64,000 bases of DNA from Candidatus Doudnabacteria bacterium (GTDB lineage: Bacteria > Patescibacteriota > Doudnabacteria > UBA920): assembly GCA_963837465.1 (NCBI GenBank), contig CAWINB010000004.1, positions 394,853 through 458,852 of the forward strand, given 5' to 3'. Numbering within the stretch: the stretch's first letter is position 1; each line of letters begins with the position of its first letter. Of the stretch, positions 22,411-58,577 are shown in pieces. The notes beneath the pieces are model-generated. The model worked only from the letters and a program-made list of their open reading frames with translations. It did not search any database and had not been told where the DNA came from. The translations under genes and the position numbers were made by a program.

Positions 22411-22428
22411 ACAGGTAGTAGTGTTAAT

Positions 22429-23607: not shown

Positions 23608-23722
23608 TTATAGGAGTTTACACCCCGGAATTTTTCACTTCAGCGCCTATTATCAGGTGAAAAATATCCGGCTGGTCCGACAAAGCTTTAGCGACGGCGG
23701 AGGTCCAGGATTAAGCTTGTGT

Positions 23723-23783
23723 CCGGATCCCGGATATTTTTTGCGGCTTATGAATTACCATCGGCGCAAAAAATTCCGGGATG
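23723..23783 (+). repeat. palindromic repeat family 1, copy C, at the capA 5' side
   Basis: The sequence is ggatcccggatatttttt gcggcttatgaattaccatcggcgc aaaaaattccgggatgg. Confidence 0.8.
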
Positions 23784-23833
23784 GACGATTATAGTTGCTA
23801 AAATGTTCTAATGCTTACATGCTCTATGAACTA

Positions 23834-36802: not shown

Positions 36803-37274
36803 GGGTAATGACAAAAATGAGCAAAAATAATAAAAATGACAAAAATGGCGGACAGAGATTTAAAACAAAGGACAAAGAAGTTTGGTATTGAAGTAATTAA
36901 GCTAGTTCAGCAAATTAATGAAAAAGGTCCGGTTGCGGCAAAAATAATCGCCAATGGGCAGCTAATAAGGTCGGGTACCGGAGTAGCCGCGAACTACAGA
37001 GCTGCGTGCAGATGTAAGTCCAGAAAAGATTTTATTTCAAAAATTGGTACGGTAATTGAAGAAGCGGACGAAACTCAGTTGTGGCTTGAGTTACTTATTG
37101 AATCAGGACTTATAAAAGCGGAATTAATTAAAGAGCTTTTACAGGAATCAGGAGAGATAACAGCGATCATGACTTCATCAAAAGATTCGGCAATTAGAAA
37201 TCAACAAGGCGCGAAAGAATAGAGCGGTCGTATTTTTGTCATTTTTTTAATTTTTATTATTTTTGTCATTACCC
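36803..37274 (+). mobile_element. mini-element: four-helix-bundle protein gene flanked by roughly 45-bp terminal inverted repeats (gggtaatgacaaaaat ... aaaaatgacaaaaatg)
   Basis: The left TIR (36803-36848) and the reverse complement of the right TIR (37231-37274) are near-identical. The element sits between hisS and the HIT gene. Confidence 0.7.
36836..37222 (+). CDS. four-helix-bundle protein (TIGR02436-like; '23S rRNA intervening-sequence protein' family)
   Basis: The helical pattern and the motifs LIRSGTGVAANYRAACRCKSRKDFISKI and EADETQLWLELL are characteristic. Confidence 0.7.
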   Translation: MTKMADRDLKQRTKKFGIEVIKLVQQINEKGPVAAKIIANGQLIRSGTGVAANYRAACRCKSRKDFISKIGTVIEEADETQLWLELLIESGLIKAELIKELLQESGEITAIMTSSKDSAIRNQQGAKE

Positions 37275-38067: not shown

Positions 38068-38508
38068 ATGCTGAATTTACAACAAATTGAAGCCGACCTG
38101 ACAACAGCCATGAAGGCTAAGGACCGGTTAACTGTAGATACCCTGCGCGGCTTGAAGGTTAGAATTCAGAATGAACAAATCGCCAAAATAAGGGAGTTAA
38201 ACGAAGCGGAGATTGTCACTCTGATAAGATCCGAAGTCAAACGCCGCAAAGAGGCGGCGGAAAGTTTTGCCGTGGGAGGCAGGCCGGAAATGGCCGATAA
38301 AGAAGCCCGGGAAGCTTTGGCGCTGGAAAAATACCTGCCGGCGCAAATTTCCGAAACTGAGCTGGCCGCAATTATAGACGCTGTTATCGTGGAAAACAAT
38401 TTTACAGCCGCGGATTTTGGCAAAGCCATGGGAGCGCTGAAATCCAAAACCGGACAATCGGCCGATGGCGCCATGATGGCGAAATTATTGAAAGAAAAAC
38501 TAAAGTAA
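38068..38508 (+). CDS. yqeY: GatB/YqeY-domain protein
   Basis: The N-terminus reads LQQIEADLTTAMKAKDRLTVDTLRGL; the rpsU-yqeY pair is a conserved arrangement. Confidence 0.8.
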   Translation: MLNLQQIEADLTTAMKAKDRLTVDTLRGLKVRIQNEQIAKIRELNEAEIVTLIRSEVKRRKEAAESFAVGGRPEMADKEAREALALEKYLPAQISETELAAIIDAVIVENNFTAADFGKAMGALKSKTGQSADGAMMAKLLKEKLK

Positions 38509-38510
38509 AA

Positions 38511-38584
38511 TTAGGGTTTAGCGGCTAGGGGTTAGCGTTTAGTGTTCCCGTTAATCCCTAAACGCTAAACGCTAAACGCTAATT
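38511..38584. repeat. palindromic repeat family 2, copy F, with three tandem ctaaacg units
   Basis: The left arm gggtttagcggctaggggttagcgtttag is inverted against ctaaacgctaaacgctaaacgctaa on the right. Confidence 0.7.
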
Positions 38585-38586
38585 TA

Positions 38587-39834
38587 ATGGCTAAAGAAAG
38601 TTACATTGTCGGCGTCGACGTTGGCACATCCAGCGTGCGCGTGGTGCAGGCTAAGCTGGACGGGCAGACCGGCCAGCTTAATATTATCGGCTCAAGCGAA
38701 GTCCCCTCGGCCGGTATGCGCCGCGGCGTAATTGTGGATATAGAAGAAGCGGTTTCCGCCATTTCCAGCGCCCTGGAAAAAGCCGAGCGGATGACCGGCG
38801 TGCCCGTGGCCTCGGCCAACGTGAGCGTGGGCGGCAGCCATATTTCGTCGCTTCAGTCGCACGGCGTTATCGCCGTATCGCGGGCCGACGGCGAAATTAC
38901 GGAAAATGATATTGTGCGCTGCGTGGATGCCAGCCAGGCCATATCCATCCCCCAAAACAAGGAAGTTCTTCACGTTTTTCCCAAAACTTTTACTTTGGAC
39001 GGGCAAAGCGGCATTAAAGACCCTGCCGGAATGAGCGGCATCCGTCTGGAAGTGGATACTATCATAGTCCAGGGCGGGTTGCCGTTCATTAAAAATTTGA
39101 CCCGTGCGGTAACCCAGGCCGGTTTGTCTATAGATGATTTGGTTTTGGCGCCGTGCGCGGCGGCCGAAGCTGTTTTAAGCAAACGACAAAAAGATCTGGG
39201 AGTCTGTCTGGTGGATTTTGGCGCCGGCACAACCAGCCTGGCGGTTTACGAAGAAGGCGATTTAATGCATACCGTGGTTTTACCCATAGGCAGCATGCAT
39301 ATTACCAACGACATTGCCATCGGCCTTCGCTGCAGCATTGAAACCGCGGAAAAAGTTAAACTGCTGTTTGGCCACAGTGACCCCAAAGCCATAGACCAGG
39401 ACGAAGAAATAGATTTATCCAAACTGGACAAAACAGAAGAACATTCCACCGTGCGCGGCTATGTGGCGGAAATTATAGAAGCGCGTCTGGAAGAAATTTT
39501 CAGGATGATAAACAGCGAGCTGAAAAAAATTTCGCGCGACGGCAAACTGCCGGCCGGAATTATTTTAACCGGCGGCGGCGCCAAAATGCCCGGCATAGTG
39601 GAATTTTGCAAAAAACATTTGCGCCTGCCCTCGTCTTTAGGCAAACCTCAAGTCTCCACAGTCATAGACCGCGTGGAAGACCCCAGCTTTGCCACAGCCT
39701 CCGGCCTCGTCCTCTGGGGCAACAAATACACCTCCAGCTCCGGCCAGCAACAACTGGGCAGCATAATCAAAAACCTGCTCAGCAACCAAAGCGTGGCAAA
39801 GCTAAGAAATTGGATGAAGAGCTTTTTGCCGTAG
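38587..39834 (+). CDS. ftsA: cell division protein FtsA
   Basis: The actin-like ATPase N-terminus is YIVGVDVGTSSVRVV, with conserved DFGAGTTSLAV and GGGA motifs. Confidence 0.9.
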   Translation: MAKESYIVGVDVGTSSVRVVQAKLDGQTGQLNIIGSSEVPSAGMRRGVIVDIEEAVSAISSALEKAERMTGVPVASANVSVGGSHISSLQSHGVIAVSRADGEITENDIVRCVDASQAISIPQNKEVLHVFPKTFTLDGQSGIKDPAGMSGIRLEVDTIIVQGGLPFIKNLTRAVTQAGLSIDDLVLAPCAAAEAVLSKRQKDLGVCLVDFGAGTTSLAVYEEGDLMHTVVLPIGSMHITNDIAIGLRCSIETAEKVKLLFGHSDPKAIDQDEEIDLSKLDKTEEHSTVRGYVAEIIEARLEEIFRMINSELKKISRDGKLPAGIILTGGGAKMPGIVEFCKKHLRLPSSLGKPQVSTVIDRVEDPSFATASGLVLWGNKYTSSSGQQQLGSIIKNLLSNQSVAKLRNWMKSFLP

Positions 39835-39860
39835 TTAACTTTTTGTGCTATAATATCAAT

Positions 39861-40067
39861 ATGCGCAATTGGTTTATGAATGATAAACATTTTGCTAATA
39901 ATAATGAAAAAGCTATTTGGCAACTGGAACAAATGGTGAATTTTGGTTTGGCCCGGGGGGAGAAACTTAACAAGAAACAACTGTTAAAATTTTGGGACAA
40001 CCTGAGCCTGGATCCGTCCAAAAAGAAATTTTTACAGGATATAATTCCCGAATTATGGACATCTTAA
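39861..40067 (+). CDS. small hypothetical protein (possible remnant of a partner gene of the adjacent AbiEii-like toxin)
   Basis: It is 68 aa counted from MRNWFMNDKHF; the ORF track entry 39606.. begins inside ftsA. Confidence 0.25.
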   Translation: MRNWFMNDKHFANNNEKAIWQLEQMVNFGLARGEKLNKKQLLKFWDNLSLDPSKKKFLQDIIPELWTS

Positions 40068-40847
40068 GTTCCAGGCAGATTTTACTTTTGGAAAGTTTTG
40101 GCAAAGAAAAATTCCTGAAACAAAACTTTTATCTGACCGGCGGCACTCCCTTGGCCGCTTTTTATTTGCGGCATCGTTATTCCGAAGACCTGGATTTTTT
40201 CAGCGAAACGGAATTTGATGTTTTAGAGCCTGTTTAATAAATTGCTTTTGAAGGCGATCTGCCAGAGGCGGAGGAGCTAAAAAGTTGAAGAAAAATGAGG
40301 CGATACCAGGGATTATCGGTGAATTTTGATGAGACTTTTGCAGCCCAATTCCTGAAATTGCGGCCAAAATGAATTTTTAAACAGGCTCTTAGACATTACT
40401 TCTTATTTCGGTAAAGTTAAGCAGGAAGCGGGCTTTGAAAAAATTGATTTGCAGCAAAGCTTTAACCGCAATCTTTATTTTTTAACTTTTCCGGAGGAAG
40501 TTTTGAAGCTGGAGTTTACCTATTTTCCTTTTCCCCGCATTGAGCGCGGGCCGGAACATTATGGAATTACCACTGACAGCCTTACGGATATAGCGGTCAA
40601 TAAATTATTTTCTGTCTACCAGCGTACCAAGGCCCGCGACTACATAGACTTATATTTTATTTGCAGGCGGGAAAATTTTACAATCCAGGATTTAATCGTC
40701 AAAGCCAGGGCCAAGTTTGATTTCCACATTGACCTGCTGCAGCTGGGGACAAAGTTTTCGCGGGCCGCCCAGGCAACGGATTACCCGCGAATGATAACAA
40801 AAGTTACCGACTCCGAATGGCAAGATTTCTTTAAGGATGAAGGATGA
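40055..40847 (+). pseudogene. AbiEii/AbiGii-family nucleotidyltransferase toxin gene, disrupted (two ORF fragments at 40055-40237 and 40449-40847)
   Basis: The N-terminal fragment has LTGGTPLAAFYLRHRYSEDLDFF (AbiEii/DUF1814 signature) and the C-terminal fragment continues the family. About 210 nt between them lack a continuous frame. Confidence 0.6.
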
Positions 40848-40919
40848 AGCCAAAAAACTCGGCAGTCAAATTTTGGAATAAGCGCGGCTTTCTTTGTCAC
40901 TGTAGGGCAACAAATACCC

Positions 40920-41015
40920 CCCGGCTCAGCCCAACTCGGCAGCATAGTAAAAAATTTAATGAACAACGAAAACGTGGCCAAAATAAGGAAATGGATGAAA
41001 AGCTTTTTGCCGTAA
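40920..41015 (+). other. diverged duplicate of the ftsA 3' end (encodes ...QLGSIVKNLMNNENVAKIRKWMKSFLP*)
   Basis: It is about 75% identical at the nucleotide level to the ftsA terminus at 39744-39834 and ends with the same MKSFLP-stop. Confidence 0.65.
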
Positions 41016-41152
41016 TATTGACGCCATAAGGTATAAAGGTTACTTATATATTATACCCTTAAATAAGGGTTAATTTTGTAATAATATATTAAATATTAAT
41101 GTCGGCTAAACTTGTGTGTATTATAAAAAAGTCTTGACTTTTTTGTAATATC

Positions 41153-41533
41153 GTGTATAGTAGTCATATTTATTTTTTTGACACGGGATTGGTGAATGGG
41201 GATGAGGGTAAAAAGTTTGAAAATTTTATGGCTGTCAGCCTGCTTAAATCGGCATTGGGGGAAACAGACTATAGCGGAAAGGCCCATGAAGTAAACTATG
41301 TGCGCACTAAAGAAGGCAGGGAGGTCGATTTTGCCCTGGTGGAGAACAATAAAATTATCAGCCTGGTTGAAGCCAAACTGGCCGATGGAGAACCGGATAA
41401 AAATCTGAAATATTTTTCAGAAAAATACGGCATTGCCGGAACACAAGCGGTTAAGGAGCTTAAGCGCGAAAAATCTTTGGGCAAAATTGACGTGCTTTCG
41501 GCCGAGAGGTATTTAAAAAGCCTGTTTTTATGA
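41153..41533 (+). pseudogene. C-terminal fragment of an AAA-ATPase/DUF4143-family protein (N-terminal ATPase domain missing)
   Basis: A YFFDTGL motif lies near its start, and no upstream coding region for an ATPase domain is present. Confidence 0.45.
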
Positions 41534-41609
41534 AAACAGTTTCGTAGCGGTCTCTAAAATCTTCTATAACAAACCATAAGTATAAGTAAGGGTAAATTTA
41601 TCCAAGTTC

Positions 41610-42929
41610 TTACTTTTCCTCAAACGCCGCCCATAGGGCGCGGAATTTGTCTACATAAGGCTGAGTTTCTGCTTTCAAATGATGCTGCCAATTGGCGCCA
41701 TAGTCCCGAATGGCGTGAGCTGCTGTAGGGGCGCCGCCATTATAGGCTGCCGCCAAGTACTCTCCCATAAACTTAGAATCCTGGGAAAATACTCTTCTTT
41801 GCTCCGGGCTGGCATTACTTAAATCTGAATCGAAAAGCAACAGGGAAGCCATTGCGCTATTTTGATGGTCGTCCATACCATCTCGAAAGCCTTTAACCAA
41901 CCTGGCTTCGGGATACTTTCGGGCAATCGATTCATAAGTATTAGGAATGAATTGGAACAAACCACCGGCTCCGGCGTTGCTATAGGCATAAATATAGGAG
42001 TATTCCCTATTAGCTCCTACAACGGTTAGCACTCTGTTAGTCAAATCGCCAATAACTTCTCGCTCAGCGTTGGCCTGGGTCAACGTCGGTACATTTGGCG
42101 CGGTTGGATGCTCTAATTTATGAGCCTCACGTTTAAAGACAAAGGGGTCAATATGTTCGCTCATGGAAAGTAGTAATGCTACCTTCATAGGCATGGCATC
42201 GGCCAAAAGTTTGCCTGGGAAAGCTTTGGATACTACCTTCCTCATTCGCAAAGCCTCCTGGGCCGCAATTAGTTGCCCGACTAAATAATCATAACCCTTT
42301 TTTCTTATGACTGGCGTGTCCAGGTCTTCGGTGTAGGGGGTATATATTTCTTCCTCAAAATTATTTTCGATTTGCAGCGCTCTTTTCAGGGCTAAAACTA
42401 CATGATGTTGGGGAGCCGTAATTTCAAACGCTGTGCCAATACCTAACGCCTCTCCTTTTACTACTTTAAAACCCTCCTTGTTAGGGGCGCCGTTTTGATC
42501 TACGTTTATGAACTCAATTTGGTTAGGGTGATTTACGGAATCAGTAGCCGCCAACAGGATATTGTAAGTTTTTAGCTTTTCTTTATGCTTTATAACAGGC
42601 GCCCTTTTTTGTCCTTTTCTTTTCTTCCCGTAAATCGGTACGGACTCAACTGTAAATCCCGCTTTTTCATCTTCTAAGCCAATCCAGGCCTGGTCAATAA
42701 TGCCAAAAATTTCCGGACGGTTAACATAAGCGTCTTCACTGCTTAGAGATTCTCCGCTAATGAATTTGGGCGGCCTCAACTCGCCTTCTTGTTCCTTTTT
42801 CACTTCTTGGGCCACTTTGGCCGAATCAACTTTTGACCCTTCGCGCGGCAGCCGGTTGCGGATAAAATTAGCGGCGGCTCCGGCTCCGGCGGCAATGAAT
42901 AGATCCCTTCTGGAAAATTTTTCCGGCAT
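41610..42929 (-). CDS. secreted lytic transglycosylase (SLT-domain) protein
   Basis: The N-terminus is Tat-like (SRRDLFIAAGAGAAA), and the SLT motif is YSNAGAGGLFQFIPNTY. Confidence 0.65.
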   Translation of the reverse strand: MPEKFSRRDLFIAAGAGAAANFIRNRLPREGSKVDSAKVAQEVKKEQEGELRPPKFISGESLSSEDAYVNRPEIFGIIDQAWIGLEDEKAGFTVESVPIYGKKRKGQKRAPVIKHKEKLKTYNILLAATDSVNHPNQIEFINVDQNGAPNKEGFKVVKGEALGIGTAFEITAPQHHVVLALKRALQIENNFEEEIYTPYTEDLDTPVIRKKGYDYLVGQLIAAQEALRMRKVVSKAFPGKLLADAMPMKVALLLSMSEHIDPFVFKREAHKLEHPTAPNVPTLTQANAEREVIGDLTNRVLTVVGANREYSYIYAYSNAGAGGLFQFIPNTYESIARKYPEARLVKGFRDGMDDHQNSAMASLLLFDSDLSNASPEQRRVFSQDSKFMGEYLAAAYNGGAPTAAHAIRDYGANWQHHLKAETQPYVDKFRALWAAFEEK

Positions 42930-42941
42930 AAAATTTTATAC

Positions 42942-43937
42942 TTAGTAATAAAGATCTTGTTTGTATTTGTTCATCAGGTCGCGGTAGTTTTTTTCAACCA
43001 TGACATGGTAACAAGGCTGGTTGCCTTCTTGTTCCGCTTCAACGATGCCTTTTTCTTTGAGTAAAATCAGACGGCCTTCCAGCCAGCGTTTTTGCTGCGC
43101 AGTTAAAGGCCTGGAGATTTTTTCCAGGGGTGAAACTGCGTTCCCCGCGAGATCTTTTTTAAATTCATCACCCCAGACAATATCAACTGCCGCCCCGGTC
43201 GGGTGCACGGAACGGCTGGAACGGTTTCGGTTCCCCACTCTGGCCAAATCACCCGATTGCACGTCCCAAGGCCGGACAGCCGAGGAAACCATAAGCGGTG
43301 GCGCATCAGGAAACTCCAGAGCGTAGTCGTGGGCCAAATCGGTTAGGAATTCGGCGGTCCATTCCGCGCAATAATCTCGTTTATATTTGCTGCCTTGATG
43401 GACTTCTTTTCGGTGGTGCGGGCCTGTAGTGTAATAGGTGAAGTCTCCATGCAGCGATAAGTAAGGATCAAGAGTTAAAAATTTATTAGTTGGCAATTCC
43501 ACAAGGTAGCCACCATGGGGATTAGGAATCCCTTCGCCTTCTTTGTTCCTCATGTATCCATTATCGTTGACTTCAAACTTCATATGTTGCCACATGGCTT
43601 CTTTGTCTCGCAGACGGCTTAATCCATCTTGATCGGCCATTTCATTTTGCCGGTTCAGCGATTCGCGTCTGCCCAATAATTGAGTGGGGATGGCGTTTTT
43701 TTCATGGCTTAAGTCTGCGACTTTGGCGTGCCCTGGTTGACCTTCTTTAGCTTCATGTTTAGCTTCGGGTTTGGCTGCTTTTTGTGCTTCGGTCGGAAGA
43801 GGTTTGGGTTTGCTGCTCTCCAAAGAAGCCAGTTTTTTTGCAATGCCCTCTCCTGCTTGCTCCAGCATTGCGCCACCCAAAAAAGCGCCGCCAAGCCTAA
43901 GTGCATCCCTTCGATCGTATCCTTCTCTTTTAGCCAT
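42942..43937 (-). CDS. secreted peptidase M15/LAS-family-like cell-wall hydrolase (tentative)
   Basis: An SxHxxGxAxD-like motif (SVHPTGAAVD) and a Tat-like N-terminus (RRDALRLGGAFLGGA) are present. Confidence 0.45.
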   Translation of the reverse strand: MAKREGYDRRDALRLGGAFLGGAMLEQAGEGIAKKLASLESSKPKPLPTEAQKAAKPEAKHEAKEGQPGHAKVADLSHEKNAIPTQLLGRRESLNRQNEMADQDGLSRLRDKEAMWQHMKFEVNDNGYMRNKEGEGIPNPHGGYLVELPTNKFLTLDPYLSLHGDFTYYTTGPHHRKEVHQGSKYKRDYCAEWTAEFLTDLAHDYALEFPDAPPLMVSSAVRPWDVQSGDLARVGNRNRSSRSVHPTGAAVDIVWGDEFKKDLAGNAVSPLEKISRPLTAQQKRWLEGRLILLKEKGIVEAEQEGNQPCYHVMVEKNYRDLMNKYKQDLYY

Positions 43938-44012
43938 AGAGGTTATTTTAAATAATATAAGTAATTATAGCATATTACGGGTAAGAAGCGACAAAAACCT
44001 ACTAAATAAGAC

Positions 44013-44041
44013 GCTTTTGCTATTGACAAAATATGGAAAAA
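44013..44041 (+). promoter_or_regulatory. perfect-consensus sigma70 promoter (TTGACA-N17-TATAAT) followed by a short hairpin with U-run, abutting the IS5 left end
   Basis: The promoter reads ttgaca aaatatggaaaaaatga tataat. Downstream aaaaacatca ttat tggtgttttt forms a hairpin. Confidence 0.4.
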
Positions 44042-44113
44042 ATGATATAATACAAAGTCAATATTATAAAGCGCCAGATAAAAACATCATTATTGGTGTT
44101 TTTAGCCGGCCCT

Positions 44114-45389
44114 TTAAGGGCCTGTTGCCGAATGCTTAAATTGGTAAAAAGATAAGCAAGCTGATTTTAGTCTAACCCTTTTTAGGATTAAGTTTGGTTA
44201 TCTTCGTATCAATTGTTTTGTTTGAGCGGTTTCGGAGGGAAATTTCAGGATACTTTTTCCTCTCCGGACGCGCTCCATCTCAAAGCCCCAATCTAGGGGC
44301 TTGTTTGTATTGGCAGAATGGTTATGGCTTTTTTAAGGTTATGGCAAATGGCTTCAAACGTGACCTGGAAAAATACTTTAGCCCGGCCTCTGAATTTGGC
44401 TCGTTTTCTGCATTTGGAGAAGGTGCCTTCAAAGGGCATTCTCATGGCGGATATCCAGCGATCCAAATCTTTGTTCTTGGTTTTGTTATTGTTCTTTCTG
44501 ATAGTTCCCGCGTGCAGACCGTGAGCTTTTAAAACATTATCGTTTTCTTTGCAGTCAAACAGCTTGTCGGAAAATACCATACCCTGTTTGGGGCAAATAC
44601 TGTCGGTAGTCTTGTAATCAGGTACATTAGCGGCGGTTACGGCCAGTTTGGTAATTAAACCGTATCTCATGTCCACGGCCTCGTGCCGCTTGTAGCCAAA
44701 CCAAATGCTGGTCTTGCTTTTGGCTCCCCAGCGGGCGTCTTTGTCGGTGGCGTAGTTTTTAACGTTTTTGTTGTTAAGTTTTTCCTCTCCGTCGGCTATG
44801 GCTTTGTCCCGTTCATCCCAGAGGGCGGTTTTGGTAATGATACTGGAAGCATCGATGAAGGTAAAAACATTGCCGACTAAGCCAAGTGATTCTAAATGCT
44901 TGTTAATACCGGTAAAAATATCGTAGAGTTTTTGTGCGCCAATTCTCTTTCGTAGCTTGCAAAAGTAGGTATGGTCAGGAGTTTGTTCTAGCAGGCCAAA
45001 GCCAGCAAACCAGCGGACAGCCATATTTTCCTTTACGCACTTTTCCATTTCCCGGTCCGAGTAGTCTTCCCAAAACTGGATAAGCAAAGCCAGAAAGCCT
45101 TTTTCTATGGCTATGCCGGTAGTGCCTAAATCGCTATACAAAGAACGTAAGGGAGAAACAAACTGCTCAAAGTCGATGATTTCCTTAAGTCTCCTAAATG
45201 GATGAGTGGCCTCTATTATTTTGTTAAAGATCTGTTGTTCTGTCTGCAAAAGAAACGGGCTGGTTTTATCATTGGGCTGTAACATTTTTTTATTTTCCTT
45301 AATGTTTACAGCTTAATTATATCATTTTAAAAACTTTTTTACTTGAGGAAAACTTAATATTTTTTGCCATTCGGCAACAGTCCCTTTAA
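44114..45389 (-). mobile_element. IS5-family insertion sequence with roughly 22-bp terminal inverted repeats
   Basis: Left end ttaaagggcctgttgccgaatg (44114-44134) matches the reverse complement of right end cattcggcaacagtccctttaa (45368-45389). Confidence 0.65.
44293..45285 (-). CDS. IS5-family DDE transposase
   Basis: The DDE_Tnp_1-like pattern has FIDASSIITK ... DKLFD ... and a C-terminal basic tail. Confidence 0.75.
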   Translation of the reverse strand: MLQPNDKTSPFLLQTEQQIFNKIIEATHPFRRLKEIIDFEQFVSPLRSLYSDLGTTGIAIEKGFLALLIQFWEDYSDREMEKCVKENMAVRWFAGFGLLEQTPDHTYFCKLRKRIGAQKLYDIFTGINKHLESLGLVGNVFTFIDASSIITKTALWDERDKAIADGEEKLNNKNVKNYATDKDARWGAKSKTSIWFGYKRHEAVDMRYGLITKLAVTAANVPDYKTTDSICPKQGMVFSDKLFDCKENDNVLKAHGLHAGTIRKNNNKTKNKDLDRWISAMRMPFEGTFSKCRKRAKFRGRAKVFFQVTFEAICHNLKKAITILPIQTSP

Positions 45390-45440
45390 CAAAATTTTCG
45401 ATTCACAAGTACCACGAATTTCGTCCAGGAGGACAACCCA

Positions 45441-46610
45441 ATGAAGAAGCAACACATGACGGCGAGCACGCTCGCCATTTTCGCGCTGATGGTTCTGGCC
45501 ACCATGACCGGATGCAGCAAACCCCAACCCGCGCCTGTTCAACAAAAAGCCGCGGAACAGCCCGAGCCGCCGCCGGCGCCCAAGAAGGTGTCCGTCACCT
45601 TTAAATCGTCGGAGGCCCCGTTCTATCTATCGGAGCATTACAGCGCTGGCAGAATCCAGGAGTTTAGGACGCAAAGCAATAAGTCTGACGATGTGTGGAC
45701 GGCTACCTACGACGAGATGAACCTTGGTAATAACAATCAGTACGCGACCCTGGTCCAAGACGGCAATATTGTGCTTACCAAGCGCATTCCGGCAGAGAAG
45801 TTCTCGGGCACCGAAGACAAGAGTATAGACTTAGACGACAGCGAGCTTGAGGCTCTCAGTCCTGACGGCTGGGTCGTGCGCCCGAATGTTCGCGTGCACG
45901 CGTTCAAGAGCGAATTCGCCGATACCAAGACCGTTAAAGTCGGGGGTGACGACAAGACCCTTGACGAACTCGCGAAGAGCCAGTACCCCTGGAGGATTAC
46001 CCGCTTCGGCCAAGGTTTCCAGGCCGAAGTGGATAACGATGTCCTCCTCAATGGCTTCCGTCCGGACGGAGTGCGCCTGTTCCTGCGGCGCCAAGAGGAG
46101 CTTAAGGCCGGCGACGACCTGGTCGAAGCCATTAAGGACGGATCCGTAACCGGTTTGGCCGTTGAGCAGCAGATTGGGAACTTCCATGAGTACGCTGCTC
46201 TGTTCGATTCTATGCCGGATGCCATTAAAGGTCCGGCGATCGATACGCTGGTTACCATCATGATTCCCAAAGTGACGGCCAAGGCTGACGAGCCTTCTGC
46301 TAGAAACGCTGCTGCTCGAGTCCTGCTAGATTTTACTTGGGACATGGTCAAGGCCATGCCGCCAACGATGGACTCAGCATGCAGTAACTGGCCAGATACA
46401 GTCGCAGACAGGCCGGTTCCGAACTATGGCAATCTCACCCAAAAGCAGTGCATGGAGAGGGTGGATATGCTTAAGTTCTGGGCGCGGCGCGGGCAGTTTT
46501 CATTCGAGAGGACCAAGGCCGATGTGGCCAAGGCGCTCGGTTCAGCTCCTGCTCCGGCCACCGGCGGCATTCCGAAAAAAGGTATCCCCAAGAAGGGAGC
46601 TGGTAAGTAG
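45441..46610 (+). CDS. lipoprotein, hypothetical (high-GC gene)
   Basis: A lipobox MTGCS follows a signal peptide, and the C-terminal tail is Gly/Lys-rich. Local GC is clearly above the window average. Confidence 0.5.
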   Translation: MKKQHMTASTLAIFALMVLATMTGCSKPQPAPVQQKAAEQPEPPPAPKKVSVTFKSSEAPFYLSEHYSAGRIQEFRTQSNKSDDVWTATYDEMNLGNNNQYATLVQDGNIVLTKRIPAEKFSGTEDKSIDLDDSELEALSPDGWVVRPNVRVHAFKSEFADTKTVKVGGDDKTLDELAKSQYPWRITRFGQGFQAEVDNDVLLNGFRPDGVRLFLRRQEELKAGDDLVEAIKDGSVTGLAVEQQIGNFHEYAALFDSMPDAIKGPAIDTLVTIMIPKVTAKADEPSARNAAARVLLDFTWDMVKAMPPTMDSACSNWPDTVADRPVPNYGNLTQKQCMERVDMLKFWARRGQFSFERTKADVAKALGSAPAPATGGIPKKGIPKKGAGK

Positions 46611-46776
46611 TAGTTGCTTTACCTCAAAATCCTCACTATAGGATCAGGGCGAGCAGTTTGCATCTAAATGATGTATTCTGCCCGCCCTGTTTTATTAGTT
46701 TAAATAGATATAAAGTTTTAATTATAGGAAAAAATATAATTTTCCTTTTAAATAAGGTACTAGATAATACTTATTC

Positions 46777-46805
46777 TTGACATATAGTTAGAAATAATGT
46801 ATAAT
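46777..46805 (+). promoter_or_regulatory. perfect-consensus sigma70 promoter (TTGACA-N17-TATAAT) with a long structured leader
   Basis: The promoter reads ttgaca tatagttagaaataatg tataat. Three hairpins follow before the ATG at 47082, including gtatcccttgc...gcaagggatac. Confidence 0.5.
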
Positions 46806-47081
46806 AATAAGTCAAAATTAAATTAGTTCTTTATCTTCTGGTTTCATTTTTGCTCTTAAAGAAAAAGCAAAAATGAGTCCAGAATTTCTGGCTCAATTGT
46901 TCTTTAATAAATATCCAGGAGGATAAACGTTACTATTTTAAATTTAAGTATCCCTTGCGAATAAAGCATCCATAAAATGAATGTTTGGATTCTTTCTTAG
47001 CAAGGGATACTCTCAAGTTCCCAAGCGCCCGGCACGTAGTGCCGGTATCCCAGTCAATACACTGTACAACGGAGAAAAAAG

Positions 47082-48584
47082 ATGCGTCAGAATTTTTTCG
47101 TCACTTTACTCGCCGCGATGCTCATTCTCACGGTGGGAAACGTAAACGCCCAACACAAGTTCGTCCCGACAACACCCGCTCCGGCCGTCGCACAGGAAAA
47201 ACCGGTGGCCGCGGAGCCCCCGGCGGAAACTCCGGAACAGGCCGCACCGGCAATAACTGACGACCATATTAAAGAGATCGCAGCAGCGGCGGTAGCAGAT
47301 GCTATTGCCAAACTGCCGGCCCCGCCAAGCAAGACCGCTATCGTGACGGAGGTTGTGAAGCAAATGCCATCCGCCCCCAACTATGACTTTTTCTTCTATA
47401 TCCAGGGTGGGATTGACCTCGTTCTGGCGATCGTTGGGGTTGTGTTTCTGTTGTTGCGCCGTAAGTCCAAGCGAAGAGTGATCTCTGGGGGAGCCGCGGC
47501 AGCCATTTTGTTGGCTTGCTTGATTGCTCTTTCCACGGTTCCTGTTCATGCAGCCGGTCCTACTGCAACTTGCACGCCCTATGTAACCAAGGACGGCACC
47601 CCCGTCGATATTACGTGCAAGGTTAACGGCATTACCAGCGCCGGCACGGTTACGTTTAGTGATACTAATGTGACCGCGACTGACGTCCACCTGACAGGCA
47701 ACACCTTGAAGTTCAAGGCAACGGCGGGCACTGCGGCGACGGCTCCCAACAGCCCCGACATGGCGGTTGATACTACCGCCGTCGGTTCTCCACTTGCGGT
47801 ACTGGACAATAACAGCGCCGCTCTCGCAGATATGGTCGTCAACATCGTCAAAGGATCCCCCGCTCCCACCACGGGCAGCGGCGCTTCCTCGGGAGGCGAC
47901 GACATCCGTTGGCACGCATTGTTTAACAGCGTCTGCGGAGTTGATAAGGCCCATGCCCGCTGCGGAAGGGAATTCGGACCCGCCATTACGGGGGACGAAT
48001 TGTTTGCGAAGCTGAAGGCGGCTCGCAACCAAGCGGAGGAAAACCTGGTGATGGGTATGTTCTCCAATGCTGTGGAGTTTAACTCTACCGACCGGGTTTT
48101 CCAAGACGATCGCTTCAAGGACGCCGCAAAGAAGACCGCGGATGCTCTCGCCGCCCTGAATGGGGCTGTTCAGAGCATCCAAGGCGGCGTAACCGAAACC
48201 CGCGTTCGCGCAATCGCTCGCGAGGAAGTTCAACCGGCCACCACGGCGGCTAATGAGGCTAAGGGCATCGCTGGTCAGGCGCTTGGCGAGGCAACTCGCG
48301 CCAATCTTCGGTTGACCAACATCGAACCCGTCATCAGTGCGAACGTCGAAGCCACGCAAGCGGCTCTCGAACTTGGTGACCATGGCGGTTCCTTCCTCGG
48401 CTTCGGCGGCGGCCCCAAACGGGATGTCAAGGTCGAAGCGAGGGCGGCTGGGTTTAAGCTCTTCTGTGCCCAGACGCTAGCCAAAACCGGCAAACCGGGC
48501 GAAGGTTGCCCGGTTCCGCAGTCCCAAGCTTCGGCCCAAAACGGCACCGCTGGTACAGTGGTGCAGATGCAGCCGAAGAAATAG
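47082..48584 (+). CDS. secreted protein with internal TM/anchor segment, hypothetical (high-GC gene)
   Basis: It has a signal peptide (MRQNFFVTLLAAMLILTVGNVNAQ) and a second hydrophobic segment followed by RRKSKRR. Confidence 0.5.
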   Translation: MRQNFFVTLLAAMLILTVGNVNAQHKFVPTTPAPAVAQEKPVAAEPPAETPEQAAPAITDDHIKEIAAAAVADAIAKLPAPPSKTAIVTEVVKQMPSAPNYDFFFYIQGGIDLVLAIVGVVFLLLRRKSKRRVISGGAAAAILLACLIALSTVPVHAAGPTATCTPYVTKDGTPVDITCKVNGITSAGTVTFSDTNVTATDVHLTGNTLKFKATAGTAATAPNSPDMAVDTTAVGSPLAVLDNNSAALADMVVNIVKGSPAPTTGSGASSGGDDIRWHALFNSVCGVDKAHARCGREFGPAITGDELFAKLKAARNQAEENLVMGMFSNAVEFNSTDRVFQDDRFKDAAKKTADALAALNGAVQSIQGGVTETRVRAIAREEVQPATTAANEAKGIAGQALGEATRANLRLTNIEPVISANVEATQAALELGDHGGSFLGFGGGPKRDVKVEARAAGFKLFCAQTLAKTGKPGEGCPVPQSQASAQNGTAGTVVQMQPKK

Positions 48585-48912
48585 TAACGTAATAAAACTC
48601 TAAGGACAGGCCTCTGCCAACAAACCTACCTTAGAGAGAACACTTAAAGGGGCGCCGTGCTCAGCTTATGCTGACTCCGCGCCCCCTTCACTTTTATATC
48701 ATTAAAATTTGTTAATATGGACAATGGTAAAAAGCCGTTGCGAAGTTGGAGAATTGTGATAAAATGAAAAGTCAAACTTGCCGCGTGGTTAAAAAAGCCA
48801 AATAGTTAGCTTTTTTAATTGCCCGGTAATATTGGGCAGGCTTAAAATATTTCAGGAGGATAAAATTTAATGATGCGTAATTGTCATACCGACAAGCAAA
48901 GTATGGGTTATT

Positions 48913-50103
48913 TTGTTTGTGGGTGTGACGATTATGAAAAATACTATACTACGAATTGCGTTGTTTTGTGCTGTGTTCGCCGCGGCTTCGGTCGCGTCGG
49001 CACAGCAAATGTTTTTTGAAACTCCCGAAGCCTGCACTTCGGCCGCTCCGGGAACATTTTCCGTTTACCAGCCCAAGTACGATACCAAATTGGGGTGGTG
49101 GAAGGAGATGAAATCCTTGGGCAAGGCTGAGCTCGTGGAAAACCACGGCAAGGTCTACTGTGCCGATGAGTTTACGGTTGTCGGCTGGAGAATTATTCAA
49201 TGGCCGGAAAACAACCCGTACTACACTTCGGACGGTAAGATTGCCGATGGTCGGTGTGGCAACGAAGTTCGCCACATTTGGGAAGTTCCTCCGCCTGCAC
49301 CGCCGCCCCAGTTGCCTCCACCGACCGGGAATATTCACGTAGTGAAAAAGACCTTTGATCCCGATTCGGTGCATATGATAATACCTACGGGCGCCGCGCA
49401 GGTGTTCGCGGGTACTACTCAAATACCGTTGAACCGGAATGATAACGGTGATGCCGAAGGCCTTATCGCTCTCCCCGAGGGCGATTACGACATAAGTGAA
49501 CAGTTTGACCCACAAGTCTGGACTCAGATTTGGTTGTCAAACAAGCGTGTTCATGTAGTTGCCGGTCAAACAGTTGAAGTCGAAATCAAGAACCAGCAAC
49601 TGCGCCCTCCGCCTCAACCGGTTGCCCCTCCCCATGTTTGCCCTATTTGCGGGGAAGTCGTCGCTTCGGCGGACTTGTCCCAGGTAGTGCTTACCGCGGA
49701 TCTTCAGCTTTGGGTTCGCGTGAAGTGGGAGGCAGTTCGGGTCATTGGAGTTTTTTGGCAGAATCGAGAGGTTTTTTCCGGACCCAACGGGACTCTCACT
49801 GTCTCCAACTTTAAGGGTGCTGGAATCTATGAGATGGAAGTACACGGAGAAGACAACGAAGGGCATATTCTGATTTGTGCTTTCAACGTTGTAACCGTGC
49901 TGCCCCCACCTCCACCGGCTCCCCATAAGGTAAAGAAAAACCACAAAAAGTTAGTGGTCGGCATAGTAATTGCAGTAGGTGTGGGGGTTTGCATTGCCTC
50001 TGCTGTTGAGGGGTGGCCTGTCCCATGCGGATGGGTGGTGAAGCTTTTTCATAAAGCCGCAGCCGCGCCAATTCAAAAGGCTCCCATTCCTGTAACCCGG
50101 TAG
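48913..50103 (+). CDS. secreted protein with C-terminal TM anchor and Pro-rich linkers, hypothetical (high-GC gene)
   Basis: A signal peptide follows MKNTIL (the probable start is near 48934). PPPAPPPQLPPP tracts are present, and the C-terminus has LVVGIVIAVGVGVCIASAV. Confidence 0.45.
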   Translation: MFVGVTIMKNTILRIALFCAVFAAASVASAQQMFFETPEACTSAAPGTFSVYQPKYDTKLGWWKEMKSLGKAELVENHGKVYCADEFTVVGWRIIQWPENNPYYTSDGKIADGRCGNEVRHIWEVPPPAPPPQLPPPTGNIHVVKKTFDPDSVHMIIPTGAAQVFAGTTQIPLNRNDNGDAEGLIALPEGDYDISEQFDPQVWTQIWLSNKRVHVVAGQTVEVEIKNQQLRPPPQPVAPPHVCPICGEVVASADLSQVVLTADLQLWVRVKWEAVRVIGVFWQNREVFSGPNGTLTVSNFKGAGIYEMEVHGEDNEGHILICAFNVVTVLPPPPPAPHKVKKNHKKLVVGIVIAVGVGVCIASAVEGWPVPCGWVVKLFHKAAAAPIQKAPIPVTR

Positions 50104-50372
50104 TTTTTCAGCCCCGGGCGCCACGGGCAAGCATCATATAAATGGCGCGGTAATCTCTTAAAAAGGCAGTTTGTTGGGAATTTTATTCCTACAACTGCCT
50201 TTTGTTTTTGGTTATAAGGTTAATTTTTTTGTTGCGCTTGACAGAAATACAGTTAATAGGTATAATATAAAGTCATTTTTTATTATTATCAACAAATAAT
50301 ATTTTTTGTGTTATAATTAACCAAGTTTATAAAAGCATTTAGTTTAATCAAATCTAATAATATAGCTAAATT

Positions 50373-51890
50373 ATGGAAAATCCATTTTCAAAAATTGCTA
50401 AAGCATATAAGGATAGTGATTTTGCTTTACGCGGGCAGACCAAAAGAGAAACCAAGGCTTTAGCCAGGGAAGAGGAGTTGACTGACGAGGCTTTGGTAGA
50501 CAAAATCCTCCAAGACCGGGGTTTTGGTAAATTTTTAGTGGACAGCAATCCAAAATACCAGAGCATGAACTTTGACAAGAAAGATTTTAAGGATATTCGG
50601 GAAAAGTATTACGCCTATACGGAATCCAAAAAGGTAGCCACGGAACTTAGGACTGTCTACAGCCAAGAGATAATGCAGGATTTGGATATTGAGCTAACAC
50701 CGGCTGAGCAAGATCAGGTATTTGAGAGCATGGATGTGGCACTAAGCAGCAGACTGCAAAAAGACGGCAGGAATATTGAAATTTCCAGGCTTAAAAATAA
50801 GCTGGAGGAATATAATAAATTAAAAGAACGGATTGAGCAACTTGAAAGCAAATTCCAGCAGGCGGGGGTCAACGAAGCTGTTATTGAGGGAATGTCCAGC
50901 GAAAAGGGAATGGATAAGCTAAGGGATCGCGAGAAGTTGGCAAAAACGGCTAAAAAGATAAAGGTGCCGTTTATGAAAGGCCGTAACCGCGGCATACAGG
51001 AAGCGCGTCAGGATTTAGTGGGTAATTTTGAAATTGAGAGAGAAAATATTAAAGCCCAATTCCAGGAGGTCAAAGCCGGCAGAAAAGAAGCGGAAGGACT
51101 GCGGCGACAACTCGACGAATTGAGGCAATATTTTTTGGTGCAGATTAAGATAGCGGACTCGGTCATAGACCGGGCAAGATTCCGGGCCAACGAAGTCCTT
51201 AAGGCTCGCGTAGAAACTGCCACCATCGAATACCAAAGACATGACCCTGCTTCAACCAAAAAAATGCAGGAGTTAGCTGACCTGCAGGCTTATTCAGAAC
51301 TTATGGACTCCACAGCCAGAAGCAAAACCGATGAAGATTATATGAATGATTTAGACGCGAAGCATCATTTTGGTGGGCGCAGGATTACGACTGCGGAGGC
51401 AGACCAGTTGGAAGCCTGGAGAGACCAGGAAGAGACCCGTGCAGCTTCAACTTTAGACACTACCGATTCAGCCAGTAAATTATTGGGCAAAATGCGTGAA
51501 GGCCGGAAGAAAAAAGGCAAAGGCGGCATTGATTATACAGCTGGCGGCCAGGTTGTTGACTTTTATGACCTTTATGACTTGGACACTGATACAGAGTTGG
51601 TAAAGAATTTGGATAGTATGCTGGAGAAGGAACTGGAGACTGTGATGGAACGAGCGGTTTTCACTTCCCGTACTATTCAGCAGTTTGAAGGCGCCTTGGA
51701 TCCGGTTTTAAAACGCTGGGAAGCCGGTCAGTATAATACCCGTGGCAAGGTCAGGAATTTTATCGCGGACAAGTTAGTTGCTCTTTGCAATACTCCTTCT
51801 ATGGAACCGGTTATGAAGGTGCAGGTTAAAGCTTTGCTGTATAAGCGCGGCATTTTTAAAGGCTTAACGCGCGTAGCGATACCTAAATAA
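50373..51890 (+). CDS. hypothetical coiled-coil protein, first gene of a four-gene operon
   Basis: It is charged and helical (505 aa) with no catalytic motif recognised. Confidence 0.4.
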   Translation: MENPFSKIAKAYKDSDFALRGQTKRETKALAREEELTDEALVDKILQDRGFGKFLVDSNPKYQSMNFDKKDFKDIREKYYAYTESKKVATELRTVYSQEIMQDLDIELTPAEQDQVFESMDVALSSRLQKDGRNIEISRLKNKLEEYNKLKERIEQLESKFQQAGVNEAVIEGMSSEKGMDKLRDREKLAKTAKKIKVPFMKGRNRGIQEARQDLVGNFEIERENIKAQFQEVKAGRKEAEGLRRQLDELRQYFLVQIKIADSVIDRARFRANEVLKARVETATIEYQRHDPASTKKMQELADLQAYSELMDSTARSKTDEDYMNDLDAKHHFGGRRITTAEADQLEAWRDQEETRAASTLDTTDSASKLLGKMREGRKKKGKGGIDYTAGGQVVDFYDLYDLDTDTELVKNLDSMLEKELETVMERAVFTSRTIQQFEGALDPVLKRWEAGQYNTRGKVRNFIADKLVALCNTPSMEPVMKVQVKALLYKRGIFKGLTRVAIPK

Positions 51891-51923
51891 TACCGATTTA
51901 AATTATAAAATAAAATAATATAT

Positions 51924-52214
51924 ATGAGCGTAGACCTATCAAAACTAGAACAGCTAGTTGAAGAAGAAAATTTTGAGCAAGCACAAAGTATGTTGGTGGA
52001 TTATTTTAGCCAACCCTTAACTCCGGAAGAACGCGGGCAGGCTTATATTGAAGTCGCCTCCGTTTATCTGGATATTGCCAATTATTTTAACAAGCAAAAG
52101 GCCGAGCTTCTTGAGGCCGGAATAAAAGCTTTGGCCGAACTGGACAAGCAGAGAAAGCAATTGGATGACTTGATAGATCTGGACAAAGTTCGCAAAGCCA
52201 TTAAAGACTCCTAA
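51924..52214 (+). CDS. small acidic helical protein, hypothetical
   Basis: It is 96 aa and lies 34 nt after the previous gene. Confidence 0.3.
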   Translation: MSVDLSKLEQLVEEENFEQAQSMLVDYFSQPLTPEERGQAYIEVASVYLDIANYFNKQKAELLEAGIKALAELDKQRKQLDDLIDLDKVRKAIKDS

Positions 52215-52230
52215 GAGCCTGTTTAAATTT

Positions 52231-52548
52231 ATGGATTCATTTGATATTCCAATGCCACCAGAAATCCGGCAGTTTTTGGAAGATATGCTCAAAGACGCGG
52301 ATGCTATGCCGGAGGCCGAGGAGCTGAAAGAAATGATGCTGAGCGATTTATACACCCGCTTGCAGGCCAAGCTGTTTTTACTTTTAGCCGACAAGTTGGA
52401 AGAAGACCAACTGGAAACTTACAGCAGGCTATCTACTTTGGATCCAGCCCAGGGAAACGCTTATTTAGATGATGTCCTGCCAAACTATAGGCAATTGTTT
52501 TTGCAAACTCTGGCGGAATTCAGGGGTGTGTTTTTAGGCAAAAAATAA
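52231..52548 (+). CDS. small acidic helical protein, hypothetical
   Basis: It is 105 aa and lies 17 nt after the previous gene. Confidence 0.3.
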   Translation: MDSFDIPMPPEIRQFLEDMLKDADAMPEAEELKEMMLSDLYTRLQAKLFLLLADKLEEDQLETYSRLSTLDPAQGNAYLDDVLPNYRQLFLQTLAEFRGVFLGKK

Positions 52549-52561
52549 GTTAAAACTTTTT

Positions 52562-56959: not shown

Positions 56960-57014
56960 ACAGATTTTGTTTATTTACCAACAGGCTTACTTAGCAGTGT
57001 CGTCTAATAAGATA

Positions 57015-58289: not shown

Positions 58290-58367
58290 AAATAAGTTTA
58301 ATTTTATCGTTATTATTATACAATAAATTAATTAAATTGGGAATTTTAGCCTGCCAGACTGAGGTTT

Positions 58368-58396
58368 TTGACAAAGTTTTGCATATAATCCATAAT
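58368..58396 (+). promoter_or_regulatory. sigma70-like promoter (TTGACA-N17-CATAAT) upstream of ftsZ; a second extended -10 (TGTTATAAT) lies at 58482-58490
   Basis: The promoter reads ttgaca aagttttgcatataatc cataat; the second element is tgttataat. Confidence 0.45.
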
Positions 58397-58525
58397 TGGA
58401 TTCATAAAGAACTGTGAAGCCGTTTATTGTTGCCTATAAAATCCCAAGGATTTCAAATATCTGTCAGGTTCCCACTTTTTGTGTTATAATCTTTGCAGTT
58501 AAAAAACAAAAATTTAAAATCAAAA

Positions 58526-58577
58526 ATCAAGACCATCCAGAAAGCTTTCGCTTAAGTCTTGATTTTATTTTTTTTAT
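58526..58577 (+). promoter_or_regulatory. hairpin plus U-run (terminator-like) in the ftsZ leader
   Basis: The pairing caagac ... gtcttg is followed by attttattttttttat, immediately before the ftsZ RBS. Confidence 0.3.

Follow-up and report, generated by a model that had tools for sequence, protein, structure and literature searches.

Why should the last codons of an essential cell division gene occur twice within little more than a kilobase, with a toxin gene lying between the two copies? The question is raised by a locus in a 64,000-nucleotide stretch of DNA from Candidatus Doudnabacteria bacterium (GenBank assembly GCA_963837465.1, contig CAWINB010000004.1, positions 394,853 to 458,852 of the forward strand; hereafter the window, numbered from its first letter), where ftsA is followed by a small gene, a disrupted gene of the AbiEii toxin family and then a second, diverged copy of the ftsA 3' end. 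An earlier note on this DNA, made from its letters alone, had read the arrangement as an insertion at the ftsA 3' end that brought a replacement end for its target gene, and that much is borne out by the duplication itself, by its recurrence in two related genomes (loci L016 and L005) and by a divergence of the tails that is biased toward synonymous change. We think it probable, without being sure of it, that a cassette encoding no recombinase was inserted here by a Campbell-type single crossover, having arrived on incoming DNA that carried an ftsA tail together with its cargo. The features on which this argument draws are as follows.

38587 to 39834, plus strand: ftsA, intact, encoding 415 amino acids (aa), with Pfam matches to FtsA and SHS2_FTSA; its last ~38-40 codons are repeat copy 1.
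39712 to 39834, plus strand: tail copy 1, the 3' end now joined to ftsA, encoding a linker and C-terminal helix that end in ...LGSIIKNLLSNQSVAKLRNWMKSFLP-stop.
39826 to 39854, plus strand: promoter-like site, from a consensus scan only (10/12 matches, extended -10).
39861 to 40067, plus strand: intact 68-aa open reading frame (ORF), a putative antitoxin or regulator and the conserved small partner of this AbiEii subfamily.
40055 to 40225, plus strand: 5' part of the AbiEii-family toxin gene, 57 codons, running to the insertion point.
40226 to 40388, no strand assigned: insertion of 163 bp resembling a miniature inverted-repeat transposable element (MITE), with perfect 12-bp terminal inverted repeats (GAGCCTGTTTAA).
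40392 to 40881, plus strand: 3' part of the toxin gene; the ORF now ends at 40847, short of the ancestral stop at 40879-40881.
About 40900 to 41015, plus strand: tail copy 2, the displaced ftsA 3' end, located by alignment and profile match.

The duplication of the ftsA tail is genuine. The two copies align in one block of 83 nucleotides (nt) at 80% identity (39751-39833 against 40932-41014) and another of 21 nt at 86% identity (39712-39732 against 40900-40920), with a 7-nt indel between the blocks. The earlier note had placed a second tail of about 75% identity from position 40920; a second tail is there, but it is about 80% identical and longer, beginning at about 40900. Aligning tail against tail, as had been suggested, gives a significant local score of 94 where the maximum in 200 shuffles was 24 (z=39.5), and an nhmmer profile built from 44 Doudnabacteria ftsA tails matches 40893-41015 at E=1.7e-19. 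Two separately assembled Logan contigs, L001 (37242-40252) and L173 (40361-45770), are both 100% identical to the window and together span both junctions of the cassette as well as the two ends of the 163-bp insert. Chance similarity and misassembly are ruled out by the shuffle statistic and by these two independent contigs.

The FtsA encoded in the window is 72-83% identical to more than 100 FtsA proteins of Doudnabacteria and Patescibacteria, all of which end in ...KSFLP. Copy 2 translates as ...LGSIVKNLMNNENVAKIRKWMKSFLP-stop, with the C-terminal end ...NVAKIRKWMKSFLP-stop; its last 28 codons, stop included, are intact, and its first ~12 codons are disabled by a change of TGG to TAG at the Trp codon just upstream and by a frameshifting 7-nt deletion. 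At the right edge homology ceases within 1-2 nt of the stop codon, while at the left edge the repeat begins at an identical GGGCAACAAATAC in the window and in L005; within the window, the two copies have GGGCAACAAATAC and AGCTTTTTGCCGTA in common as identical blocks at both repeat edges. The insert is flanked by direct copies of a single chromosomal fragment that ends at the ftsA stop codon, which is the arrangement that a Campbell-type insertion produces, and these direct repeats derive from the 3' end of the target gene, as do the attachment (att) sites of integrative elements.

What lies between the tails is small: an insert of only 1.06 kb, with a single two-gene toxin-antitoxin (TA) operon. 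The predicted -35 hexamer of the promoter-like site, TTGCCG, is made by the last two codons of ftsA itself and is followed by a 17-nt spacer and TG-TATAAT, and a TGCTATAAT box stands at an equal distance past the ftsA stop in L016. A candidate -35 formed by the end of ftsA fits the idea that tail 1 and the cargo travel as one unit. The 68-aa ORF overlaps the AbiEii start codon (40055) by 13 nt at its end. A homologue of it precedes AbiEii in 9/9 cassettes examined, a HMMER search found 74 cluster representatives among 1.8 billion proteins, and one protein of 282 aa has the domain at its N-terminus, in an apparent fusion to a toxin-sized protein. It had no match in Pfam, PADLOC (AbiE models included), NCBIfam or the PDB sequences, and a word-index homology search returned nothing but the query. 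A single-sequence AlphaFold2 model predicts three helices at a modest mean confidence (pLDDT 68), and a Foldseek search with this model gave no fold match.

AbiE is a type IV TA and abortive-infection system, known as the AbiEi/AbiEii pair of Lactococcus and Streptococcus agalactiae, in which the AbiEi antitoxin consists of a winged-helix N-terminal domain and a C-terminal domain and is about 200-300 aa long. The cassette resembles AbiE in that its toxin belongs to PF08843 (the DUF1814/AbiEii nucleotidyltransferases) and has the GG...SEDLD motifs, and in that its two genes have overlapping frames; it differs in that the upstream gene encodes a protein of ~65 aa, predicted to be three-helical, with no detectable relation to AbiEi. 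Judged by its sequence, the module is an AbiEii-family toxin with a non-canonical partner and not a canonical AbiEi/AbiEii pair. The search for an intact pair between the same boundaries in a relative, which the earlier note had proposed, was positive: L016 has one, its partner gene being a 70-aa ORF.

The toxin gene had been described as two fragments (40055-40237 and 40449-40847) preceded by a 68-aa ORF, which is what we find, the 5' ORF being readable from 39992 or 40055. It had also been described as degraded, and the gene is indeed disrupted, but by a discrete MITE-like insert and a 7-bp duplication and not by diffuse decay, and the 68-aa ORF is intact. The 163-bp insert interrupts the gene at codon 57 and is flanked by a TTA duplication (40223-40225 and 40389-40391). 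The second lesion, a tandem duplication GGATGAA GGATGAA at 40835-40848, shifts the frame near the 3' end. Removing the 163-bp element, one TTA and one 7-mer yields a protein of 217 aa that matches PF08843 at 70.1 bits (cut-off 22.5) as well as 19 PADLOC AbiEii models, and that aligns over 99-100% of its length, at 57-65% identity, to at least 120 proteins; among the matches listed, the homologues are 215-232 aa long, mostly 217-221, and come from many lineages of the candidate phyla radiation (CPR). The repaired C-terminus, ...DFFKDEAKKLGSQILE (...EAKKLGSQILE), agrees with ...FFLNEARKLKSQIFEE in L016 and ...FFIAEAKKIKNEIIA in L163, a locus considered below. Two discrete lesions whose reversal restores a full-length protein indicate that the fragments are one gene and not the product of a sequencing error, an alternative that the earlier note had left standing and that was not borne out. 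An exact-protein look-up of the 132-aa toxin fragment found it not to be on record. As it stands, the toxin gene is, on the evidence of its reading frame, inactivated by the two lesions.

In structure the insert is MITE-like, with terminal inverted repeats, a target duplication and no coding capacity, and its precise removal restores the reading frame. It has no ORF and is predicted to fold into a long hairpin (-55.6 kcal/mol). The 64-kb window holds one full copy of it and a partial solo end at 52215. Both Logan contigs end 27-28 nt inside the insert, as expected for a repeated element in short-k assembly.

Is the arrangement peculiar to this genome? We scanned 161 related loci from GTDB genomes and metagenomes (L140, an inverted chimeric contig, was left out). 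Among the 107 loci with a match to the ftsA tail, a full second tail occurs only in the window, L005 and L016, and more than 40 relatives with a single ftsA tail represent the unoccupied site. In L016 the order is ftsA, a 70-aa ORF, an intact AbiEii gene and the second ftsA tail, and in L005 it is ftsA, genes for an MntA-like nucleotidyltransferase and HepT, and the second ftsA tail, the repeat being 115 nt long at 87% identity. The three cargoes are independent, since the AbiEii of the window is 61-65% identical to more than 100 proteins of other CPR lineages as against 45.6% to that of L016, and the pair in L005 is unrelated. In the ftsA tree the three repeat-bearing genomes are interspersed with single-tail genomes. 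The metagenome scan, which reached only about 9 close relatives, several of them ending at the end of ftsA, gave no further case, and a scan of viral contigs for phage with an ftsA tail gave a single match, which was spurious. We found no description of ftsA-tail-flanked cassettes in the literature, which does not prove that none exists.

Several other loci show something of note downstream of ftsA. In L017 (6435-6520) a 23-nt second ftsA end, CTTAAATCTTTATTGCCTTAG (LKSLLP-stop), stands 41 nt past the real stop with no cargo, and may be the scar of a lost cassette, the evidence being marginal. A metagenome contig, L082, agrees with L005 at 100% identity for 6490 nt, and its end coincides exactly with the ftsA stop codon, which could reflect population heterogeneity downstream of ftsA. 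Toxin genes stand straight after ftsA without a tail repeat in L009, with a PIN-domain gene at 9546-9917, and in L013, with an AbiEii-like gene and a 102-aa ORF on the reverse strand at 5487-6418.

The same signature is found at the ends of other genes. Such gene-tail repeats came to light in a blind self-comparison of all loci. L163 has the closest AbiEii cassette, its toxin 64.7% identical to that of the window; this cassette lies after a gene for a phosphoenolpyruvate (PEP)-utilizer protein, whose tail is repeated directly after the AbiEii stop at 84-89% identity. In L062, from Gottesmanbacteria, the ftsZ tail is repeated around a gene of the phospholipase D (PLD)-like family (10392-11752), with 9 nucleotide differences between the tails and an identical peptide, DEWDIPAFLRQGKH. 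In L033, from Doudnabacteria, the ftsZ tail is repeated around a 2.5-kb cargo of four genes that ends in a PIN-domain TA pair (8515-11152). The duplicated ftsZ C-terminal tail encodes a DIPAF... peptide in both L062 and L033. Within their genes, the targeted tails rank among the best-conserved parts. No more than about 20 nt separate the toxin stop from copy 2 in the window, L005, L016 and L163; the cassette promoter lies 26-90 nt past tail 1, and four independent cargoes each consist of precisely one compact TA operon. No core sequence common to the ftsA, ftsZ and PEP-utilizer cases was found.

If a tail was brought in with the cargo, the two tails should have diverged as working gene ends do. 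When copy 1 is compared with copy 2, the ratio of non-synonymous to synonymous differences (pN/pS) comes to 0.18 in the window, 0.23 in L005, 0.31 in L016 and 0.04 in L062, and the tail pair of L163, its codon frame read by hand, has 5 synonymous and 2 non-synonymous differences. Pooled over the five tail pairs the ratio is 0.27, close to the 0.30 of orthologous working tails and below the ~0.6 expected if copy 2 drifted freely (P=3e-4), the expectation being the average of one constrained and one neutral branch. Such synonymous-biased divergence indicates that most of the differences arose while both tails worked as gene ends, in different lineages. The incoming DNA therefore probably brought a foreign ftsA tail, as far as comparison of the tails can tell.

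Which of the two tails is ancestral, a comparison that the earlier note had proposed, is weakly resolved. Over the last 84 nt the best identity to tails of relatives is 81% for copy 2 and 73% for copy 1, and copy 2 keeps the RKW that is near-universal in the clade where copy 1 has RNW. Both observations favour copy 2 as the native tail and copy 1 as the one imported with the cargo, and the geometry and the straddling promoter-like site suggest the same assignment, which we regard as probable within that weak resolution. Synteny does not add to this by the route we tried: 41016-41620 showed no similarity to the DNA after ftsA in relatives. A resemblance between the window and L005 in the ~25 nt before copy 2 (12/23 positions, T-rich) was too weak and was not used.

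On the most likely reading, events at this locus would have run as follows. A cassette made up of a promoter, the 68-aa ORF and the gene for an AbiEii-type nucleotidyltransferase toxin, and encoding no recombinase, would have come in on DNA carrying its own last ~38-40 ftsA codons from another Doudnabacteria lineage. A circular or circularised molecule of 'ftsA tail + cargo' would have been taken up, and one crossover in the conserved tail would have integrated the circle; recombination within the tail would join the foreign end in frame to the resident ftsA as copy 1, so that FtsA would retain its C-terminal membrane-binding helix, and the resident tail would be displaced to the far side of the cargo as copy 2. 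Were the two direct tails to recombine with each other, the circle could be set free once more. The conserved gene tail would act as a reusable attachment site, and from such a site a different TA cargo in the same slot of relatives would follow. Later decay accounts for the rest, the MITE-like element and the 7-bp duplication inactivating the toxin gene, and the nonsense change and the 7-nt deletion disabling the upstream part of the displaced tail. Copy 1 as the import, the circular intermediate and the part played by host homologous recombination are all things that we infer. DprA is encoded at 23834-24931, which is compatible with DNA uptake.

This scheme has a familiar counterpart in the laboratory. 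Campbell-type insertion-duplication is a mutagenesis tool in the naturally transformable Streptococcus pneumoniae and Bacillus subtilis: the crossover of a circle that bears a chromosomal fragment yields fragment, insert and fragment in that order, and the targeted gene stays functional if the fragment reaches its stop codon. The architecture of the ftsA cassette is exactly that one. The laboratory procedure employs identical homology of several hundred bp, whereas here the event would be natural, the tails are diverged and 50-120 nt long, and the circle is deduced.

A number of observations count against this scheme. Only three genomes carry the ftsA form, and neither a circular form nor an empty-site allele of this species has been observed. 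The repeats are 80-87% identical with longest identical blocks of 13-20 nt, which is little homology for RecA-dependent recombination unless the partners resembled each other more closely when the insertion took place. The assignment of the foreign tail rests on small differences, and the tails within each genome have lineage-specific residues in common (WMKSFLP in the window, RVRKW in L016, NKTVA in L005), which also fits duplication in place or gene conversion between the copies; these shared residues could mean closely related donors, gene conversion, or repeated recombination in and out. A sliding-window comparison of identity with 14 relatives revealed no donor mosaic in the body of ftsA, in data that are noisy and of poor resolution. 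The AbiEii cassette also occurs without a flanking repeat at seven further loci in at least four contexts, after ligA, pilC, glycosyltransferase genes and an uncharacterised gene. These repeat-free cassettes indicate that the repeat marks insertion into a coding 3' end and is not intrinsic to the cassette.

The most serious alternative, and one that we still consider unlikely, is that the cassette is the remnant of an integrase-driven element (a prophage, or a genomic or mobilisable island) whose attP contained the ftsA 3' end, and that all of the element but its addictive TA module was deleted or that the cassette is moved in trans by a helper's integrase. Integrative islands and prophages do insert at the 3' end of tRNA or protein genes, for which they supply a new end, and integrase-less derivatives that a helper can move exist, such as the cis-mobilizable elements (CIMEs) of Streptococcus thermophilus integrated at the fda 3' end. 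The present locus resembles these in that a direct repeat from the target 3' end brackets the insert, in that the target gene is intact and in that the unoccupied site is found in relatives. Just such a layout, with cargo between attL and attR and a new end supplied to the gene, is what these elements leave, the identical blocks at both edges of the repeat would suit attachment sites, and the surrounding 18.8 kb is a variable island with an insertion sequence (IS) element and foreign-looking genes.

Yet the cassettes of the window, L005, L016 and L163 contain no integrase or recombinase, and no recombinase domain was found among the ORFs tested in the 18.8-kb interval between ftsA and ftsZ, where there is only a DDE transposase. 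The term 'integrating element', which the earlier note had used, holds for the geometry of direct repeats and, with no integrase among the ORFs tested, does not describe a demonstrated mechanism. Random deletion, moreover, would rarely be so neat as to leave one compact TA operon in four independent cargoes, and the ftsA, ftsZ and PEP-utilizer cases share no common core. The cassette differs from islands and CIMEs on the same counts: it is 1.06 kb with a single TA operon and no integrase in the tested ORFs, its repeats of ~115 nt are only 80% identical with no short identical core, and the pattern spans different cargoes and different targets (ftsA, ftsZ and the PEP-utilizer gene).

It is also conceivable, and in our view distinctly unlikely, that the cassette was captured by one-sided homologous recombination during natural transformation (homology-facilitated illegitimate recombination), a donor fragment of ftsA tail and cassette pairing with the recipient's ftsA and its non-homologous far end being joined illegitimately just upstream of the recipient tail, which would survive as copy 2. 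Such capture would make tail 1 foreign and selected and leave tail 2 native with no need of a recombinase, possible donors with TA genes after ftsA and no repeat exist in L009 (PIN) and L013 (AbiEii, on the reverse strand), and DprA is present. Illegitimate joints should scatter, yet the window and L005 have a repeat that begins at the same GGGCAACAAATAC, and in four cases the toxin stop codon marks the very end of the cargo; the body of ftsA, within the poor resolution noted above, also lacks a visible donor-like mosaic.

Two other kinds of cassette that have no recombinase of their own invite comparison. In Neisseria, minimal mobile elements are swapped through a double crossover, one exchange in each flanking gene, and no gene end is duplicated; the pdif modules of Acinetobacter plasmids have XerC/D sites as their boundaries. 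The ftsA cassette resembles both in being small, in the frequency of TA cargo, in the absence of a recombinase and in the presence of alternative cassettes, from strain to strain, at a fixed site between conserved genes; it differs from minimal mobile elements by its gene-end duplication and from pdif modules in that no XerC/D site is evident.

Less probable again is a target-site or tandem duplication of ~50-120 bp made in place, after which copy 2 would drift as junk, perhaps with some gene conversion, and the cargo of an old slot would be swapped later. In its favour, the tails within each genome share lineage-specific residues and are mutually best or near-best matches, and the first third of copy 2 in the window is frameshifted and carries a nonsense change. 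Drift is hard to square with pN/pS values of 0.04-0.31, as low as among orthologous tails (0.30) and under the predicted ~0.6 (P=3e-4), or with the peptide of L062 that is unchanged across all 9 differences, and we know of no transposition mechanism that makes duplications of ~50-120 bp.

The suggestion that the tails are the variable and template repeats of a diversity-generating retroelement (DGR) acting on the FtsA C-terminus, which is attractive because DGRs are common in these genomes and give the same first impression of a gene-end repeat a few hundred nt downstream, and because a gene of the Avd family (23S_rRNA_IVP) lies 2.6 kb upstream at 36836-37222, has next to no chance of being right, since mismatches fall on template adenines in only 10/18 cases in the window, 6/17 in L005, 0/9 in L163 and 2/9 in L062, and since the window pair has an indel, a TA operon between the copies and no reverse transcriptase between or beside them. 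The mismatch spectrum excludes a DGR when set against two positive controls: the genuine DGR pairs of L042 and L033 have 17/17 and 20/23 mismatches on template adenines, with bAvd and reverse transcriptase (RVT_1) genes adjacent. DGR loci were seen in L042 (11216-13174) and L033 (3923-5316) and also in L119 and L120; in the DGRs of relatives the variable repeat is at a gene 3' end and the template repeat about 430 nt downstream.

Three further features define the region downstream of the cassette.

41153 to 41533, plus strand: fragment of a DUF4143 gene, N-terminally truncated, with a Pfam match to positions 102-159 only of the 160-position model.
44113 to 45389, transposase on the minus strand: complete-looking IS5-family insertion sequence with 22-nt inverted ends (TTTAAGGGCCTGTTGCCGAATG).
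58608 to 59828, plus strand: ftsZ, with Pfam matches to Tubulin and FtsZ_C; the ancestral neighbour of ftsA.

Among more distant Doudnabacteria the gap between the ftsA stop and the start of ftsZ is no more than about 20-200 nt. Here ftsZ stands 18.8 kb from ftsA, which makes 39835-58607 a variable interval, and close relatives also hold 2.6-8 kb of unrelated genes after ftsA. The DUF4143 fragment is the first feature past the displaced tail; we treat it as context and not as part of the cassette, and no counterpart to it was found downstream of ftsA in relatives. Besides the TA cassette and this truncated gene, the interval contains the IS5-family element, several large ORFs that matched no family, a gene resembling type IV secretion system (T4SS) pilins, and an inverted pair of an SLT-like and a DUF5715 gene, a pair that in L038 follows ftsA on the opposite strand. 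GC content reaches 56-59% in the ORFs at 45441-48584, as compared with about 45% elsewhere. At 57402-57752 two tandem units of 174-177 nt, 80% identical, lie inside a minus-strand gene with a T4SS-pilin-like C-terminus.

The IS5-family element encodes a 330-aa DDE transposase (DUF772 and DDE_Tnp_1) on the minus strand, and its ends, TAA|GGGCCTGTT..., are like those of the 163-bp insert, TTA|GAGCCTGTT..., which lies 3.7 kb away on the ftsA side. The insert resembles IS5-derived MITEs in its inverted repeats, its 3-bp TTA duplication, its hairpin and its lack of an ORF, and differs from them in being present as only one full copy and one partial end in 64 kb. The solo end, again GAGCCTGTTTAA, falls in 52215-52548 just before a 105-aa ORF, of which a PEAEELK stretch also matches the interior of the MITE; homologues of this ORF were found in the ftsA-ftsZ intervals of L013 and L038.

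Other repeats and mobile genes lie upstream. Just before ftsA (38508-38585) there is a palindromic repeat of TTAGGG and TAAACGC units, with a related copy 22 kb away at 16006-16037. The Avd-like gene already mentioned encodes a 128-aa '23S rRNA intervening sequence protein' (an Avd-like four-helix bundle) within 36803-37274, with flanking inverted repeats of 33 nt; it stands between hisS and a HIT gene, two genes that in close relatives are separated by about 100 nt, and a copy 74% identical to it occurs at a different place in L018. The region looks like another small inserted cassette. Two further transposable-element genes occupy 14144-15278 and 10771-12057, one encoding a DDE_3 (IS630-like) transposase with 30-nt inverted repeats and the other a protein of 428 aa with a weak match to the rve integrase core. 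A family of intergenic palindromic repeats of ~60 nt (GGATCCCGGATATTTTTT...AAAAAATTCCGGGATG) is found at 15295-15355, 22350-22410 and 23722-23786, and two inverted copies of it flank a PGA_cap gene (22429-23607). We had suspected an IS element at 22347-23786, but what lies there is the PGA_cap homologue with its two flanking palindromes.

Bacteria of the CPR have very small genomes in which few mobile elements can be recognised, and how they exchange genes is poorly understood. Two lessons for reading such genomes follow from this locus: gene-end repeats in them are not always DGRs, and the test of mismatches on template adenines separates the two cleanly; and 'split' toxin genes can be precise MITE insertions and not the outcome of decay or sequencing error. 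The pattern also suggests that TA and defence genes slot recurrently into the end of an essential gene, leaving the gene unbroken and with no dedicated recombinase; if so, cassette mobility of a simple kind, powered by the host, would help to explain why a variable island occupies the normally fixed junction of ftsA and ftsZ in this clade. We offer a broader proposal tentatively, as a possibility on which we would not yet rely: the tails of essential division genes (the FtsA membrane helix, the FtsZ C-terminal peptide and maybe others) might serve in CPR as portable attachment sites for recombinase-free TA and defence cassettes, which would move as tail plus cargo, integrate by a single tail crossover after DNA uptake, leave the old tail behind and be able to loop out again. 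If this were true, the end of an essential host gene would play the role that attC and attI play in integrons.

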